A DNA stretch of 26,969 bases from a virus: UHGV virus genome UHGV-2016197; one strand, given 5' to 3'. Below, piece by piece: positions 1 through 7,766 of the stretch. Below the pieces are notes generated by a model that did not search any database, was not told the origin of the DNA, and was given only the letters and a program-made list of their open reading frames with translations. A program made the translations under genes and the position numbers. Every line of letters starts with the position of its first letter. Position 1 is the stretch's first letter.

Positions 1-83
1 TCACTCTGCCAGATGGCGCAATGCCATCTGGTATCACTTAAAGGTATTAAAAACAACTTTTTGTCTTTTTACCTTCCCGTTTC

Positions 84-246
84 GCTCAAGTTAGTATAAA
101 AAAGCTGAACGTGAAACATTAAAAACCATTAATATCAATGCATTACAATATCTTTAGTCTAAAAAATAGACTACATAATGCGACAAAACACAACATATCC
201 AGTCACTATGAATCAACTACTTAGATAGTATTAGTGACCTGTAGCA
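84..246. other. attR: Prophage attachment site attR (P arm - 15-bp core - B' flank), lambda type; host chromosome lies to the left
   Basis: Plus strand 91-105 ttagtataaaaaagc is the reverse complement of the lambda common core GCTTTTTTATACTAA. Left of it (plus 81-90) is the B'-type flank (reverse complement AACTTGAGCG); right of it are arm-type Int sites CAGTCACTAT (200-209) and ATTAGTGACCT (230-240). Comparison is to lambda att as recalled from memory. Confidence 0.7.
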
Positions 247-250
247 GAGC

Positions 251-292
251 ATTAGCGCAAGGTGATTTTTGTCCTCTTGCGCTAATTTTTTG
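251..292 (+). terminator. Rho-independent terminator, lambda tI/sib-like retroregulatory hairpin
   Basis: Perfect 11-bp stem ATTAGCGCAAG (251-261) / CTTGCGCTAAT (276-286) followed by TTTTTT. Position just beyond the P arm and near-identity to my recollection of the lambda tI/sib region. Confidence 0.6.
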
Positions 293-783
293 TCAACGCA
301 CTGGGTTAGTTGAATTTACAACCATGCTCAGTATCTCGATAAACGCAGAGAAATGATGCAGTGGTGGGCAGATTGGCTTGATGAAAGTGTGCTGTAATCC
401 TCATATCCAACCTAAGAGATATGCACAATTTTGTGAATAAGATATTGAGAATTAGCGAAAAGTTTTATTTTGCGTATCATCAATTCAGAATACAAAGTCA
501 CATGCTAATGTTCTGCATTGGTATCTTTTGCTTATCCATGTCTACATTATCGCCAAAATAATAGGTTTTGCCTATCAATTATTTGAATTACTTCCATGAA
601 ATTATAACGCACTTGTAATTTTTGATTATTTTTACCTCTCAAGTGTTTTGTTTCTTCTATCTCTTTGTATTTTTAGCGAAAGTATGCCATATTGCATTCT
701 AATATAACGTGGCGTTGTTTCTGTTTAATGATTTAAATAGTTCAACATAATATTTGCTAACAAATTATATCCAAGCAAATCAT

Positions 784-1929
784 ATGATATTATCATTACA
801 ATATATTAGAGGAATAGCATCATTACTTGTTGTTTTATTCCACTTCAGATTCTTGCTAAATGAGCACTACTCTCAGAAAGATTTGGGTGACCTATTATTT
901 GGGAATGGGCTGTCTGGAGTTGATATATTCTTCATATTAAGTGGATTTATCATCGTATACTCAACAAGAAAGAAGGAAGTTAATGATACTTTCTCATTCT
1001 CAATTAGAAGAATATTTAGAATATACCCATTACTAATCACATGCTGTTGCATGTATTACATAATAAACACTCAATTTCTAACCTATGCTACAGTTGAAAA
1101 CTTTAGAACATTACTTATTTCCATCATTCCATTAAATATAAACTGGAATGAAGGCGCTCCATTCTTTGCCTATAATCTTTTGTACCCGGCCTGGACGATA
1201 ACATATGAAATTGGTTTCTATGTTTTTTTCGGGGTATCAATGTCTATTTCGCATAAATACAGAACAATTATCTGTTCTGTTTTTATAATCATGGTGGTCT
1301 CATTTACACAATACTATGTGAATGGAAATATATCATTTTCAGGTGATGTTAGTGCAGGGTTATTTACAGATAACTGGTTATTAGGATATACAAATGTTAT
1401 TACATCTCCAATGATGTATGAATTCGTTATTGGGATGTTTCTTTCTGAAATATTTACAAACATCAACGAAAGAAAAAGTATTAAAAGGATACTTTCAAAG
1501 TATTCGCTTCAAATACTATGGATTTCATGTGGTATATCCATAATATTATTCATTATCCAGCGACCTTATGGGCATGGATTGAATGGATTTGGGACTATGG
1601 CGATGATACTTATTGCATCATCATTAGTATATGAATACTGCAATATAACACCCAAAATAAAAATATTTAATTTCCTTGGTGAAATATCATATTCTTTATA
1701 TCTAATTCACGCCGTGATACTTGCTTTGTTCTTCTATTATAAGGCAGACCTTGCTGAAATTGGCATAACTGGTGGATTTTCTGTGTTTTTTTCCTTGGTT
1801 ATTATCTCAATAACTGCATCATATCCAATATATATTCTCATTGAAAAGCCAATGATAAATATAGGCAAACGTTTAATTGACAAGAGAAACAATAGCATTA
1901 ATAAAAAAGAAACCGAAATAACAGCGTGA
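784..1929 (+). CDS. Acyltransferase family 3 integral membrane protein; probable surface-polysaccharide (O-antigen) O-acyltransferase, lysogenic conversion moron
   Basis: Translation has the acyltransferase-3 N-terminal pattern (LQYIRGIASLLVVLFH ... GVDIFFILSGFII) and multiple hydrophobic segments. Strongly AT-rich relative to the rest of the window. The ORF-track start at 754 is TTG; first ATG is 784. Sits where Sf6 carries oac (between tailspike and att). Confidence 0.8.
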   Translation: MILSLQYIRGIASLLVVLFHFRFLLNEHYSQKDLGDLLFGNGLSGVDIFFILSGFIIVYSTRKKEVNDTFSFSIRRIFRIYPLLITCCCMYYIINTQFLTYATVENFRTLLISIIPLNINWNEGAPFFAYNLLYPAWTITYEIGFYVFFGVSMSISHKYRTIICSVFIIMVVSFTQYYVNGNISFSGDVSAGLFTDNWLLGYTNVITSPMMYEFVIGMFLSEIFTNINERKSIKRILSKYSLQILWISCGISIILFIIQRPYGHGLNGFGTMAMILIASSLVYEYCNITPKIKIFNFLGEISYSLYLIHAVILALFFYYKADLAEIGITGGFSVFFSLVIISITASYPIYILIEKPMINIGKRLIDKRNNSINKKETEITA

Positions 1930-1941
1930 TAATGACAAAGT

Positions 1942-1968
1942 TAGTGCCGGGATACCCCGGCACTTTTT
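1942..1968 (+). terminator. Rho-independent terminator of the acyltransferase gene, shared with the convergent tailspike 3' end
   Basis: Stem GTGCCGG (1944-1950) / CCGGCAC (1957-1963), loop GATACC, then TTTTTAAT. The tailspike stop codon (1967-1969) lies inside the T tract. Confidence 0.55.
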
Positions 1969-3913
1969 AATCTATTTCGTAAGTGACAGTGATTATCACC
2001 TCTGCATTATTACCCAAAACATTTCGATATATATTCATATTACCTGATAATGTAGTTGCTCCAGTAAGAGTTATATAACTACTATTTGCATCAACCCTTG
2101 GAAGTAAAGCGGTAACTGCTGTTGTTAAATTATTATAGTAGCCTGTACTTCCAACATATGCAGCTTTATTGCTTGATACATATGGTAACCCTCCAATTCT
2201 GAAACCATCTCCTGACCCAATTAAAGTTATACCAAGGTGACATGTTGCCGTTATGATATTGCCACTCCTGACATAATTTCCTTTCTGCTGATAATATGTG
2301 GCATTACCACCTACAGTCGGAATCCAAACTCCAGTTTCTATATCACCACATGACCAGTCTTCTGCTGTTGTTAGTTTTCCAGTAACAATAAATTTACTTC
2401 CCCCACCAGAATTATAAGGAACAAAAATTGGATTTATTCTTGCATAAGTGTTACCGGTCTGCTCATTAAGATCATTTCTACCAATAAGAACCTGACCATT
2501 TTCAAAGTTTGATATCTGGCAGTCAGTTACACTCCAGCCCCTTAATTTTACATCAGCATCCATGACGCCAATAAGCTTGCCAGCGTTACCAATTTTTTCT
2601 TTATGCATATTTACATACACATTTCTTACCGTAACAGACTGAGGGAACAGATAATTAGCAGGATTGGTTTTATCACTTAAAACAGATATTACCCAAGGTC
2701 TGTATTGAGTACTTACTTCACAATAAAATCCATCAATAAGTGTTCCAGATGCCGCTGGTCCAAGTAGTATTCCACCTGTAGAGTGATGCGCACTACCTCC
2801 AATTACTCTCCCCTTAACGCAGTTAATATAGGCAAAATATCCTAAATCTTGATTGTCATAGGCTGACATAGCACAGTCTCTAACTGTTACTCGCGAATTT
2901 CCTCCATCATAAGCTGAGCCATCAGTTTTCTTACCAACTATTGATATAAAGTTACCAATAGCAACTCGACTATAAAAAGTTTTTTTATAACACCCCTCAA
3001 TTAAAATATCCCAGTTTTCAAACTGAGCATATATATCATAAGAGCTGGCGTTCCCATAATCTATGAAATCACAATATCTTATTTTCGGCGTATAAACGGC
3101 ACTTTTTATCTTTATACCACCTAATGCTCTCTCCCCACCTGTGAATCTAATGCCAGTAACGGTGTAATCGCCTTGATAGAAATTATCTGCGGTAGGATTA
3201 TTTTCGTCAGAATCATCACCCAATATAATAGCAAATTCACTCCCTGAATAATTAATTGTAGCCCCCTTATTTGAATATATAGTTACAGGCCTTATAAACT
3301 CCAAAGAATTACTTATTAGATACTCTCCATAAGGAAAAAAAATCTCAACTGGTGGTGAGTACTTAGGTCTGGAGTTTACGTAATTCATAATATTGATTAC
3401 ACCAACATCATCATTCGTGCCATCACCTTTAAACCCAAAGTCTTTCGCGCTCACAAAATCTGCATTTTTATCGTGCTGTGCTCTCTCGATTGCCATAGAG
3501 AGAGGTTGTTTTACACGAACAACTGAATCATCAACTAATAATGGCCCATTTTCAGATAGCAATCTTTCCTGAAATTGATCAGGATCATACTTCAGCACAT
3601 TAGGAAAATAGAACTGCTGCGAACCATACGCATCATAAACAGCCATAGAATGACCTTGCACAGTTACGAATTTGGCAATCTGCCCGTTATATACCGGATA
3701 TCCAGCAGCGTTAATGATGATTGGCTGTGCAACAGAAACGTGAGAGCCGTCTTCGTTTTCCACATAAACCTGAATCTGGTTTTCAGGATTTACAGGGTCA
3801 GTGTCAATTTTACCGATATAAATTTTGCCATTGGCTACGGCTTTAAAAGAACGCGCCATAGTGAAAAGTTGCGAAGGCATCGATACGATCACATTGGCTG
3901 TAATGTCTGTCAT
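1967..3913 (-). CDS. Tailspike protein (P22 gp9-type head-binding N-terminus, divergent receptor-binding domain)
   Basis: N-terminal ~110 aa ([11 protein letters not shown]...[20 protein letters not shown]...[13 protein letters not shown]...VLKYDPDQF) match the P22 gp9 head-binding domain from memory; remainder has beta-helix-like repetitive composition. ATG verified at 3913. Confidence 0.9.
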
Positions 3914-3977
3914 TTAATTTGCTCCAGATACAAGGAATCGCCGCAGCATGGCTACGGTGAGTATTTGTTTGCTTTTT

Positions 3978-4000
3978 GCACTACACTTTTTGTGTAGTGC
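3978..4000. repeat. Perfect 9-bp inverted repeat with 5-nt loop in the tailspike leader
   Basis: gcactacac (3978-3986) ttttt gtgtagtgc (3992-4000); not followed by a U tract on either strand, so operator or RNA hairpin rather than terminator. Confidence 0.4.
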
Positions 4001-4047
4001 TATCTCTCAAGGCCATAGCCGCTGAGTAGCTACGGTGAATTTTGGGC

Positions 4048-4074
4048 ATAAAAAAACCCAGCCGAAGCTGGGTC
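4048..4074 (-). terminator. Rho-independent terminator (minus strand)
   Basis: Minus-strand RNA CCCAGC-UUCG-GCUGGG followed by seven U (plus-strand A run 4050-4056). Confidence 0.6.
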
Positions 4075-4121
4075 GTTGCGTTGGTTATCTGTCAGTAGTT
4101 ATGTACTGGCTGAAGGATTTG

Positions 4122-4147
4122 TACAAAAACCCACCTGACGGTGGGTT
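4122..4147 (-). terminator. Rho-independent terminator immediately downstream of the 322-aa gene (minus strand)
   Basis: Stem AACCCACC (4128-4135) / GGTGGGTT (4140-4147), 4-nt loop, U-rich tail on the minus strand (UUUUUGU). Confidence 0.6.
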
Positions 4148-4153
4148 TCATAA

Positions 4154-5122
4154 TTAGATTTCTGGTTTCATTCTTCCAAAAACCTTTTCTATTCCTTTTT
4201 CGTATTCTTCTCTTGTCTCACTCATCGCTGCGACCCCAAGAAGCTTACCGATATGCTGACGCAAAGCCTTGACACCAATTTCAGAAAGGAACAGATGCAA
4301 CTTATCAGATTGTTTTCCGTTCTCGTCTCGGCTGGCTCGAATCTGTTCAAGGATTTTACCTTTACTCTTTGCTAGCGGGGTGTATATCTGCATGTTGGTT
4401 AGCTGCCCAAAACGAATAGGCCGTCCTTTCTCTGGCCTATTCAGGCCGTACAGTCGATACCACTCCTCGTATAGCTCATCTGGAAATTCCTTTTCATATT
4501 GACGAGCTTCTTCACGAACAAACGCTTTGAACTCGTCAATGACAGCCTGAACTTCTGGACGATAACCAGCAAGCGCATACGCAACCCCCTTAATTCCCGC
4601 CTTAGCGGAGGCATTAATAAGTCTCTGTGCTGCGGCGGCTGCCTTTAACCGTGATTGTGGTAGATCGTCATTATCTTTGGCTTCTATTAGTGCCCTACCA
4701 ATATCAACAATTGCTGTAATGTCATAACCTAACGCTTGATGAACGGTTTTAGACTTCGAAGTAAGTTGAAATTTATAGGGATTTTCCATTTTTCGCTGCA
4801 ATTCTAGATCTCGGTATTTGCTCATATACTGAGCGCCAAGTAGTTGATCTAAATCCCTGGCATGTTCACCAATCCCTAGCAACTGAGATAATCCAGTTTT
4901 CGTAACAACGACAGTTTTCGACTCGTCATCCAGTACATAACATTCAGCATCAATGCCAAAATCATCTAAAAAGTTACCACGATGAGTTGCCCTGAGAATC
5001 TTACTTTTCCATCTTGCAGCAGCTGCTTTCTTTGCTATTTCAGAACGCTGCTCTTTAGTCAGCGACTTTGCGCGAGCGATCCCGCCCTTAGCTTTCCCTT
5101 CACTACTTTTCTTTTCTGTCAT
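4154..5122 (-). CDS. Hypothetical accessory protein, P63C-domain-like, with basic N-terminal putative nucleic-acid-binding segment; function unknown
   Basis: 322-aa ORF; ATG verified at 5122 with AAGGTG Shine-Dalgarno. N-terminus KGGIARAKSLTKEQRSEIAKKAAAARW followed by ATHRGNFLDDFGIDAECYVLDDESKTVV resembles the pattern I recall for P63C-domain phage proteins. Own promoter and two terminators; not part of the P22 core virion gene set. Confidence 0.7.
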   Translation of the reverse strand: MTEKKSSEGKAKGGIARAKSLTKEQRSEIAKKAAAARWKSKILRATHRGNFLDDFGIDAECYVLDDESKTVVVTKTGLSQLLGIGEHARDLDQLLGAQYMSKYRDLELQRKMENPYKFQLTSKSKTVHQALGYDITAIVDIGRALIEAKDNDDLPQSRLKAAAAAQRLINASAKAGIKGVAYALAGYRPEVQAVIDEFKAFVREEARQYEKEFPDELYEEWYRLYGLNRPEKGRPIRFGQLTNMQIYTPLAKSKGKILEQIRASRDENGKQSDKLHLFLSEIGVKALRQHIGKLLGVAAMSETREEYEKGIEKVFGRMKPEI

Positions 5123-5277
5123 AATGCAAGCACCTTGTTGTGATATATGCTTGCATTATATACACTGTACACACATACAAGCAAGCATAAAACCAAAACA
5201 AAATGCTTGCATTACAACCGCGCTACTCCAACTACACATTATCATCTGGTATCCTGCACAAAACTAAGGAGGTTGGT
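5123..5277. promoter_or_regulatory. Divergent control region with four copies of a 9-10 bp operator-like motif (ATGCTTGCAT and its complement) and a perfect TATAAT for the minus-strand gene
   Basis: Motif copies at 5124-5132, 5147-5156, 5181-5188 and 5203-5212 in alternating orientation, forming two inverted-repeat pairs with 14-15 bp spacers. Minus-strand TATAAT at 5155-5160 abuts one copy; AAGGAGG Shine-Dalgarno at 5266-5272 serves the plus-strand ORF. Confidence 0.5.
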
Positions 5278-5606
5278 GTGCTTGAATGGTTTCTGTTGGC
5301 TGCATTAGTCGTTTCTGGTTTGGTGTATGAGTATCGAATGCACTCTCTAACAAAAAAATAGGAATTCTAGAAAACGAATATTGTGCTCTCAAATCCTCAC
5401 TGGAACGTGAGCAAGGGGACTTAAAAATCTCTCTGTCTAGCATTGAGCGTTCTATAGAGAGCTTAGAGGATAAGGTTGATCGTATAAAGAATGAGGATAT
5501 TCATGATATTAAGGACGACATATCCTTCTTAAAATCTTGGTTGAAAAATGTTGGGAAAATTGCCACATCAACACGAGATAAGCTCAATCCATCCATGGAT
5601 GACTAA
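5278..5606 (+). CDS. Small membrane-anchor ORF (27 codons, GTG start) that reaches a 83-codon coiled-coil-like downstream frame only through a -1 shift at an A7 tract; possible recoded gene, phase-variable gene or frameshifted pseudogene
   Basis: Strong SD AAGGAGG + 5 nt + GTG (5278). Frame 0 reads (M)LEWFLLAALVVSGLVYEYRMHSLTKK then TAG at 5359-5361. Heptamer A_AAA_AAA at 5352-5358; -1 frame continues IGILENEYCALKSSLEREQGDLKISLSSIERSIESLEDKVDRIKNEDIHDIKDDISFLKSWLKNVGKIATSTRDKLNPSMDD to TAA at 5604-5606 and has no ATG/GTG/TTG start of its own. Confidence 0.3.
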
Positions 5607-7766
5607 TTACTCCTGTGCCATTCCGCTTAGCGATGCCACAATTCCAGCTCTTGCTAAACGCTGGAACTCTTCGTTTCCTAGTGCCTCGCGTATTGCTTTT
5701 ACGGCGGCCTTATTTGCCATAAATCTGCGTTCCGCTGCCGCTAATGCTTCTTTGCTTCCGCCTGCTCTTACTGCTTTAGTGGCTTCCTGAACTGCTTTCT
5801 CTATCGCATACCGACCACTACGTGTGGTGGCAATTTTAGATACAGCGCCTTTTAACCCAGCGCCAACTAAAGCACCTGCGGCAGCGCCTGCAATGCCTCC
5901 TCCAGCGCCACCAACAATGGCACCTGATGTTGAGTTGGCAATTGCATTTAACACTGTTGATGTGACGTTGGATAAACCAGCATCCAGATCGCGTAGTACA
6001 TTGGCAGTTCTCCCTGTTCTTTCAATATACTGCTGAGGTTTCACTGCTGCTCTTGCAAGAGTGCCATACGCATCAGCAATTCTTCCAAGCTCTGAGGAAT
6101 ATCTGCTAATGGCTTTTACATTTTGTGGAGTGAGTATCTCTGCGATATGGTTAATTCCTGCTGCATCAGCTTTGCCACCACGTACACCATGCGAGATGGC
6201 ATCCTGCAACATTGATGATATAGCAGGAACACGCTCTGATTCTGGCAGCGCGCGGATCATAGAATGGAATCCAGCAGGACCATTAAGACCTTTAGCTGAC
6301 GATGATTGAAGGGATTTTACTCCATTCGTAATCAGTGCATCTGTTGCCAAATCACGCCCGAAAACAGACTCTGCACTCTCTTGTGCTGATAACCTCGCTT
6401 TAGACAGATCATTAGCTTTTTGCCAGTCATCAAGAAATCCGCCGTTTTCCGCCATTGTGCGCATATCATCAGTAATTGCCCGGCGTATTTCCCCTGCTCT
6501 CCTTGCCGCATTTGCCTCTCCGCTACGCTTATATTTTTGCTCCGCATCAGCAAATTTCGCTCTCCATGCTTTCATGCCATCAAATGTTACTCCACCTTGA
6601 TTGTTTGCCTGAACAAACTGTTTCATTTCAGGAGTAAGCGGTATGCCGGCAGATCGCTCTGCCTGAATAACGGCATTACCATTTAGCATTCTTGCTTTTT
6701 GATTTGGCATTGTTGACCGTACGTCATCCCATGCCGCGCGCTCGGCATCCTTCATCTGATCAAGATTTTGAAGAATCCTTTGTTTTATAGCCGCACTTTT
6801 TTCTGATGCCGTTCCAGATGCGGCCCCAAATTCATCAAGGTTTCGACTTAACTTTGATGATATTTCGTTAAATGCTGCCTGATGGGCGTCCTGAACAATT
6901 CCTGGTGTTGATGCCAATGCGCCTTCGGCTTGTGCAATTCCACGACTTCCAGATCGCATTCCTGGTGTTAATGCGTTTATATCAATTCCAGCAGACTCAG
7001 CCGCTTTTGCTACATCTTCGGACACATTAGCGGCCTGACTGGCAATTGACTGACGCCCAGCACCTGACTTTGCCATCCTGGAAACATCATTAGCAGAATT
7101 CAGTGCTGCACCACCAAGAGCCTGTGAAACCCTTGGCGCAATAACGCGCCCGACACCTGAAAGAACGCCTTGAGCACCAATATTGATACCACCGTTAATG
7201 GCAGCATTTTGTGCAAAGTCGCCCTCCTGATTTGCAGCATCAGCAAGAGAACCTGCAATCATGTTTCCTGCGGAACCGATATCTCCAGCGAGCTTTGCTG
7301 TCGCTCCAGCAGCTTTTGCCGCTGTGCCAATTGGCAGGAGATACCCACCAAATGTTTCACCGGCTTGCGCCCAACGGTCTGTCGGTCGATCGACAGGGCG
7401 ATAAACATCATCCAAAACCTTGGGGCCACCAAGCCCATGGCTGATTGCATTAATCAGACTTGCGCCACCCTGCAATACGTCAAATGGTATGTTTACCAGA
7501 CCACGACCAGCCTGTTCTGCAATTTGCCCTGCACTTTGACCACCTGTGAGCCAATCGCCAGCTTGTTGCATCAATGATGGTTCTTCTTTCTGCTGCTGAT
7601 GCGGAGGGTATGCTGCATAAAACTGATCTCTTGCTTCAGCCCATTTGTCACCAGCCTTAGGGGCAACAACCTCATCAAAATATTGCGCTTGAGCCTGTGC
7701 TTTCTGTTCTTCAGTTAACGCCTGATACTGTGGAGAGGCGATAACATCTTTCCATGCTTTAGCCAT
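5607..7766 (-). CDS. Ejection (pilot) protein, P22 gp16-like
   Basis: 719-aa Ala/Gly/Gln-rich protein at the gp16 position, last gene of the head-tail operon; ATG verified at 7766, overlapping the upstream stop (TAATG). Confidence 0.75.

Follow-up and report, generated by a model that had tools for sequence, protein, structure and literature searches.

A tailspike-linked acyltransferase gene of a P22-like prophage at the lambda attachment site, a probable converter of the Escherichia coli O7 antigen

What does a single AT-rich gene do on the plus strand of a prophage whose other long genes all point the opposite way, and why does it lie between the attachment site and the tailspike? The question is raised by the virus genome UHGV-2016197, a stretch of 26,969 nucleotides (hereafter the window), which represents the right end of a P22-like prophage. 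Its first base directly follows the stop codon of ybhB in the alignment to Escherichia coli REL606 (98% identity). The tailspike, ejection proteins, coat, portal, terminase and lysis genes are all encoded on the minus strand, and the exception is an open reading frame (ORF) that runs on the plus strand from 754 (TTG) or 784 (ATG) to 1929. The order of att, integrase (int) fossil, acyltransferase and convergent tailspike places this ORF in the att/int-proximal, tailspike-adjacent slot used by serotype-converting modules of P22-like (Lederbergvirus-type) phages. A first-pass annotation had singled it out as the only long plus-strand ORF and as a candidate serotype-converting acyltransferase. It is the longest ORF on that strand, and every other plus-strand ORF of at least 90 amino acids (aa) overlaps a minus-strand ORF. 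RefSeq and gene callers give the ATG form of 381 aa, which recurs on many contigs. We consider it probable that the gene at 784–1929 serves lysogenic conversion, in that its product O-acylates the O7 antigen and thereby masks the receptor of the P22-like phage integrated at the lambda attachment site.

The assignment to acyltransferase family 3 (AT3) is well founded. The protein matches Pfam PF01757 (Acyl_transf_3) from position 2 to 325 of the 326 in the profile (E 4.5e-31, 108.5 bits against a cutoff of 31). It also matches PHROG 3333 'O-acetyltransferase' at 9e-72 and, more weakly, PHROG 6705 'O-antigen acetylase' at 6.6e-14, with no match among NCBIfam models, PDB sequences or PADLOC defence systems. 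Thirty characterised AT3 acetyltransferases have three motifs in common, R/K-X10-H in transmembrane helix (TMH) 1, which includes the invariant catalytic His, FFXISG in TMH2 and RXXR in TMH3, and these motifs are essential in OafA, Oac or OafB (PMC7448272). All of them are intact here, as R9-GIASLLVVLF-H20, FFILSG at residues 49–54 and R76-IF-R79. Across an alignment of 48 sequences with 29–51% identity, H20, F49, F50, S53, G54, R76 and R79 are invariant and R9 is conserved in at least 90%. The AlphaFold2 model for which this alignment served as input (pLDDT 93.6, pTM 0.92) is all-helical, and it predicts about ten membrane-length helices followed by a C-terminal helix, with no extra domain and no fused SGNH domain, as expected of an AT3-only acyltransferase. 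The sole meaningful fold match in the PDB (Foldseek) is human HGSNAT (probability 0.96), in agreement with published work that places AT3 proteins together with HGSNAT in one superfamily, TmAT. The Foldseek matches to the PDB included no solved AT3 structure, and BFVD returned one unnamed viral protein. Judged from sequence and model together, the gene product is a bona fide AT3-only acyltransferase.

The locus also corresponds to the site where phage Sf6 carries oac, as the first-pass annotation had noted. In Sf6, the tailspike is followed by a terminator and then by oac and int on the opposite strand. Sf6 Oac (OacA) is likewise an AT3-only protein of a P22-like phage, encoded between int and a convergent tailspike with an annotated terminator between them, and it has the R-X10-H, FFxxSG and RxxR motifs in common with the window protein. 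Acetylation by Oac blocks the endorhamnosidase tailspike of Sf6 itself and gives immunity to Sf6 (PMC9558356). The differences are nevertheless considerable: identity is 24% over 192 residues of the N-terminal half (E 2e-6, pairwise), the lengths are 333 aa and 381 aa, the polysaccharide is that of Shigella flexneri as against the presumed E. coli O7, and Sf6 has an int gene whereas the window has a lambda-type att with an int fossil only. Because the identity of 24% is no closer than that to the AT3 family in general, we rejected the window protein as an orthologue of Sf6 Oac. The same logic, in which the AT3 enzyme of a temperate phage modifies the O-antigen that serves as receptor, applies to OacB of Sf101, OacD of SfII and Oac of PhiV10 (O157) (PMC9558356). 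The window protein has the AT3 transmembrane domain, the His/Arg pair of TMH1 and the RXXR residues in common with OafA and OafB of Salmonella; OafB is prophage-associated and protects against phage BTP1 (PMC9558356). Both are AT3-SGNH fusions, whereas the window protein lacks the 11th helix and the SGNH domain. The gtrABC cassettes of P22, SfV/SfX and coliphage Hf4s also lie between att/int and tailspike and block re-adsorption by modifying the O-antigen, but they comprise three genes and use glucose from undecaprenyl-phosphate-glucose (Und-P-glucose) in place of a single acyl-CoA-dependent AT3 enzyme.

The genomic settings of relatives are informative about the likely substrate. Of the six that we sampled, five (from E. 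coli, Pseudomonas aeruginosa and a metagenome contig) have a prophage gene for a tailspike, a tail-fibre-like protein or a beta-helix protein as direct neighbour, and the sixth is in Salmonella. A 52% relative in E. coli is found in argW prophages between intS and a tailspike with a head-binding domain and Peptidase_S74, and a 51% relative directly follows a Peptidase_S74 fragment. At argW, a 36% E. coli relative occurs in the order tailspike, acyltransferase, int. Another E. coli relative (39%) adjoins a prophage lysis cassette and converges with the gene of a 732-aa protein that has no Pfam match and is probably a tailspike or tail fibre. In P. aeruginosa, the gene of the 40% relative runs into the end of that for a 692-aa beta-helix protein, which itself adjoins a gene for a GpJ-like tail protein, and the 41% relative in Salmonella is situated within the O-antigen cluster, adjoining gnd. 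Pairing with a depolymerase gene or residence in an O-antigen cluster is thus the rule in this subfamily, and the case for an O-antigen substrate draws mainly on this pattern. When 50,697 phage records were searched with tblastn at E 1e-3, the best phage match (39%) was an uncharacterised Pseudomonas phage protein, and the phages with characterised O-acetyltransferases named in PMC9558356, Sf6 included, were absent from the matches.

The convergent partner of the gene is a tailspike with a Pfam Head_binding domain (E 6.7e-66) followed by a pectate-lyase-like beta-helix. The head-binding domain is encoded at about 3575–3913 and the AT-rich receptor-binding beta-helix at 1967–3560. PDB sequence matches to this tailspike reach residues 1–196 at most, covering the head-binding domain and a stretch of the Sf6 tailspike. 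The receptor domain (1970–3559, minus strand) has 54% identity over 95% of its length to the tailspike of the virulent G7C-like phages St11Ph5 and ShWW44. We considered this match as a clue to the receptor and rejected it, because St11Ph5 was isolated on an O5ab host and its reported infection route is independent of O-antigen; no receptor was assigned from it.

The link to O7 comes from the distribution of the gene among hosts. It is present in 51 of 5426 complete E. coli genomes, with its ORF intact in every one of them, and all 51 also have the tailspike receptor domain. Fifty of these carriers comprise E. coli B, BL21 and REL606 together with natural isolates related to these strains, among them one with the label O7:H4. 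The remaining carrier is strain 2018-05-5CC, in which the gene lies within a prophage at argW and the rfb cluster bears an O7 annotation (wzx, wzy, vioAB, wbbD). The O7 wzy gene was detected in 97 of the 5426 genomes, and at least 43 of the 51 carriers are among the O7 wzy matches listed. Hosts whose O-antigen genes were read directly are all O7, genotypically, and so is a 52nd genome, that of strain 81, where the tailspike at argW has 85% identity to that of the window. The O7-specific rfb genes have a GC content of 30.7%, equal to the 31.0% of the acyltransferase, which we count in favour of an O7 substrate. In the B-lineage copies that were examined or listed, the prophage at att-lambda is decayed and its tailspike is N-terminally truncated with stops; the acyltransferase is intact, and the REL606 copy differs from that in the window by five synonymous and two non-synonymous changes.

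Two further observations concern this lineage. In BL21(DE3) (745001–795000) the element has disappeared from the site, which is taken up by the lambda DE3 prophage, and no (DE3) strain is among the 51 carriers. The defective prophage of REL606 (788649–808058; segment 11730–12722) encodes a second, unrelated AT3 protein of 330 aa (31% identity over 83 residues), which adjoins a tail-fibre assembly gene just past the truncated tailspike. In strain 81, the tailspike occupies the same slot and is paired with a 666-aa acyltransferase (locus 2910–6917) that has only 28% identity to the window protein over its AT3 region. This protein is long enough for an extra C-terminal SGNH-type domain and is predicted to be of the AT3-SGNH type. 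Differences between the window and strain 81 tailspikes are mainly located at nucleotides (nt) 451–1050 and 1651–1947. On one contig (11184–13130) a recombinant tailspike was seen which is of the strain 81 type at nt 451–900 and of the window type elsewhere, and which accompanies a window-type acyltransferase.

How did the pair arrive next to a lambda-type attachment site? Window 87–295 aligns to lambda 27534–27742 with 87% identity, spanning the attP core, the P arm and sib/tI. The att core is at window 91–105, ttagtataaaaaagc, and the hairpin at 244–292 (−29.2 kcal/mol, z = −4.4) is nearly identical to the lambda sib/tI hairpin and lies about 150–190 nt from the core, which is a lambda-like distance. 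By this alignment the segment is a true homologue of lambda attP-sib/tI, as the first-pass annotation had recognised for the hairpin upstream of the gene. The tI hairpin is placed between the co-directional host gene ybhB and the acyltransferase and would stop read-through from ybhB, which fits the insulating role that had been suggested for it. Beyond it, window 314–394 translates to IYNHAQYLDKRREMMQWWADWLDESVL followed by a stop, the last 27 residues of an IntS-type integrase. This fossil peptide is identical to the C-terminus of IntS in strain 2018-05-5CC and differs only slightly from its counterpart in Sf6 Int, and its DNA has 97% identity to the 3′ end of Sf6 int. Strain 2018-05-5CC itself shows the order argW, intS, the same acyltransferase (one amino-acid difference) and convergent tailspike, and its sequence is 99% identical to the window from 312 to 3924.

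The int fossil indicates that the acyltransferase-tailspike cassette was imported from an Sf6/HK620-type argW phage and, since the window phage uses a lambda-type att with sib, that it was gained by recombination from a phage of the argW/IntS type. The left junction of the imported cassette lies inside the 3′ end of int, at 312. On the right, the junction falls at the head-binding domain or close to it, with homology from about 3573 onward shared by many other P22-like phages. The first-pass annotation had let the element begin at 300, close to the real mosaic junction; as a start for the gene this does not hold, given that the int remnant (314–397) and the leader (398–783) lie outside it. Phage Kapi1 was tried as a guide to the cassette and set aside, because it has only the int fossil and boundary sequences in common with the window and its conversion gene is unknown.

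The cassette occurs in two integration contexts. The exact protein was found on 24 contigs, and at the eight contig sites shown, at att-lambda and argW, the gene is in each case convergent with a tailspike of 648 or 649 aa. Across these eight independent contigs the acyltransferase gene differs by 0–1 nucleotides, and the rest of each prophage varies. Among complete E. coli genomes, the closest match to the whole prophage covers 75% of it at 94.5% identity. The acyltransferase and the tailspike receptor domain travel together, as an AT-rich cassette, from one P22-like phage to another even where the integrases differ. Base composition leads to the same delimitation. The GC content is 31.0% in the acyltransferase coding sequence and 31.6% in its leader, against 49.0% in window 3914–26969, and the lowest-GC frame of 1146 nt in the whole window begins at 401. 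The receptor-binding part of the tailspike has 36.7% GC, with a GC content at third codon positions (GC3) of 0.237 as compared with 0.291 for the acyltransferase. The earlier description of the gene as far more AT-rich than its neighbours thus needs one correction. Since the adjoining tailspike receptor part is AT-rich as well, the compositional island is a two-gene cassette and not the acyltransferase by itself.

The gene has a terminator of its own, with the convergent tailspike stop codon in its T tract, as had been claimed. The stem (1943–1964) has 9 base pairs, 7 of them G-C, and is followed by TTTTT at 1964–1968, which overlaps the tailspike stop codon (tta, 1967–1969). The hairpin folds with −19.1 kcal/mol (z = −3.7) and, with no T-run after it on the minus strand, it would terminate transcription of the acyltransferase gene better than that of the tailspike gene. 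At the other end, the 472 nt 5′ of the start codon show 0–5 differences among the eight independent contigs in two integration contexts. Phase-variable regulation is unlikely, because there are no GATC sites in window 1–2469 and no tandem repeats in window 1–4200. We therefore rejected both phase variation of the Dam/OxyR type known from gtr and oafB, a signature in which OafB differs from the gene studied here, and slippage at repeats of the NeuO type.

By analogy with characterised AT3 enzymes, we propose the following mechanism. The gene would be expressed in the lysogen, and its product, an inner-membrane enzyme with about ten TMHs, would draw on acetyl-CoA in the cytoplasm as the most likely acyl donor, pass the acyl group through a transmembrane pore and, on the periplasmic side, attach it to a hydroxyl group of the O-antigen. 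Catalysis would depend on Arg9 and His20 of TMH1 together with R76-xx-R79. We take the E. coli O7 O-polysaccharide, which is presumably what the convergent tailspike uses as its receptor, to be the most likely substrate, and its acylation would keep that tailspike from binding or cleaving it. Lysogens would then no longer adsorb the same phage or phages of the same receptor specificity, and their antigenic type would be altered.

Several points weigh against this proposal. The O7 repeat unit is not known to carry O-acetyl groups in its published structure, and literature searches on O7 O-acetylation, on the acyltransferase protein or on the gene in E. coli B found nothing relevant in the library searched. 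The link to O7 goes back to about three independent acquisitions, those of the B-like lineage, 2018-05-5CC and strain 81. No convincing sigma-70 promoter or Shine-Dalgarno sequence was found upstream of the gene, where promoter matches reach 8 of 12 positions only and the best candidate (−35 at 724–729, −10 at 746–751) is weak. Rough strains of E. coli B, which do not produce O-antigen, also have the gene in intact form, and there it has either not yet decayed or acts on another substrate. Moreover, AT3 enzymes also acylate enterobacterial common antigen (ECA), osmoregulated periplasmic glucans (OPGs), exopolysaccharides and peptidoglycan, and some of them transfer succinyl (PMC9558356).

This diversity of substrates, together with the preservation of the gene in B strains, where two non-synonymous stand beside five synonymous changes, would also be expected if the enzyme acylated another envelope glycan (ECA, colanic acid, a K capsule, OPGs or peptidoglycan) and if its place beside the tailspike were simply a moron insertion site. 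Some relatives are indeed annotated 'ExoZ-like exopolysaccharide production protein'. We nevertheless regard such a substrate as unlikely: the gene is strictly co-inherited with one tailspike receptor domain at two integration sites, it is confined to O7 backgrounds, it has its 41% relative inside an O-antigen cluster, and it lacks the SGNH domain of the peptidoglycan-modifying OatA-type enzymes. The gene could also be an inactive or decaying passenger, AT-rich foreign DNA that is not expressed (for example as a result of H-NS silencing) and has no current function. The missing promoter and ribosome-binding site, the very AT-rich region and the truncated, stop-containing tailspikes next to it in the B lineage would all suit a passenger. 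This explanation is highly improbable in view of the ORF intact in 51 of 51 complete genomes, the near-identity of the gene on independent contigs, the retention of every residue invariant in the 48-sequence alignment and the mostly synonymous nature (five versus two) of the changes relative to REL606.

A different question is whether the O-antigen is modified for a purpose other than self-exclusion, be it to ward off other O7 phages, to alter immune recognition or to provide the form of O7 that the partner tailspike variant prefers. That a closely similar tailspike is paired in O7 strain 81 with a different, presumably SGNH-bearing AT3 protein in the same slot, and that a recombinant tailspike allele occurs with the window-type acyltransferase, would agree with such a role, and some tailspikes do need O-acetyl groups, such as gp63.1 of G7C (PMC6393563). 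Against this, Oac of Sf6, the best-studied analogue, gives immunity to Sf6 itself, and a tightly linked pair is most simply understood as one gene masking the target of the other. We think there is only a small chance that the role lies outside self-exclusion. Modification of O7 by the acyltransferase, with masking of the receptor of its own phage, is the reading we prefer, and as a hypothesis it upholds the receptor-masking exclusion put forward in the first-pass annotation.

A wider generalisation is possible, though we hold it tentatively and think it rather doubtful. The acyltransferase and the tailspike receptor domain may form a self-contained mobile unit of two genes, one for recognising and one for masking the same receptor; the PHROG 3333 subfamily may be paired in this way with depolymerase tailspikes in podovirus and siphovirus prophages of Enterobacterales and Pseudomonas. 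There may then be an unrecognised O-acylated O7 subtype across the whole E. coli B-like lineage, and AT3-only and AT3-SGNH enzymes may be swapped beside near-identical tailspikes in an arms race between phages.

The features of the locus are collected in Table 1. Beyond the tailspike, a 322-aa P63C-domain protein (PHROG 2384, function unknown) is encoded at 4154–5122 on the minus strand, in the slot that is taken by the antirepressor gene ant or by HNH/Arc genes in related P22-like phages. A terminator-like hairpin is located at 4055–4074 (minus strand) inside a conserved boundary sequence (4015–4108). Between the P63C-domain gene and a gp16-like ejection gene (5607–7766) there is a hairpin of about 100 nt (5113–5221, minus strand), which may be part of immI-region regulation. 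An Rfam scan of window 1–6000 revealed no real RNA family in the acyltransferase region, and matches to miRNA precursors at the 5113–5221 hairpin were judged to be due to chance. GATC is scarce over the whole window, with 62 sites observed against 106 ± 9 expected from shuffles.

Table 1. Coordinates of the features between the host boundary and the tailspike (positions in the window).
Feature	Position	Strand	Basis
Host DNA directly 3′ of ybhB, bio-side arm of the lambda attachment site	1–86		98% identity to REL606
Lambda-type att core and P arm, ending in the sib/tI hairpin (244–292)	87–295	+	Lambda homology
IntS-type integrase fossil, last 27 codons and stop	314–397	+	Translation, DNA identity
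AT-rich non-coding leader of the acyltransferase gene, presumed promoter region	398–783	+	Conservation across contigs
Predicted AT3-only membrane O-acyltransferase, 381 aa	784–1929	+	Pfam, PHROG, motifs, AlphaFold2, PDB fold match
Intrinsic terminator of the acyltransferase gene	1943–1968	+	Hairpin followed by T-run
P22-type tailspike, 648 aa	1967–3913	−	Pfam Head_binding and pectate-lyase-like domain

A phage-borne AT3 O-antigen acyltransferase in the position of Sf6 oac is a well-known kind of gene, and the mechanism proposed here is textbook lysogenic conversion, for a protein that is itself uncharacterised. What the analysis adds is the assignment to O7, the junction in the int fossil and an explanation for an anonymous gene of E. 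coli B and BL21. The int-fossil junction illustrates cleanly how such cassettes pass from one P22-like phage to another. The 'acyltransferase family protein' of E. coli B, REL606 and BL21 would be explained as the fossil of an O7-specific converting phage, with BL21(DE3)-type strains being without the gene. If O7 is acylated as proposed, some O7 strains would differ chemically from textbook O7. Such a difference would matter for serotyping, for O-antigen glycoconjugate vaccines and for the host range of therapeutic phages; extraintestinal pathogens occur among O7 strains, and E. coli B is of O7 ancestry.

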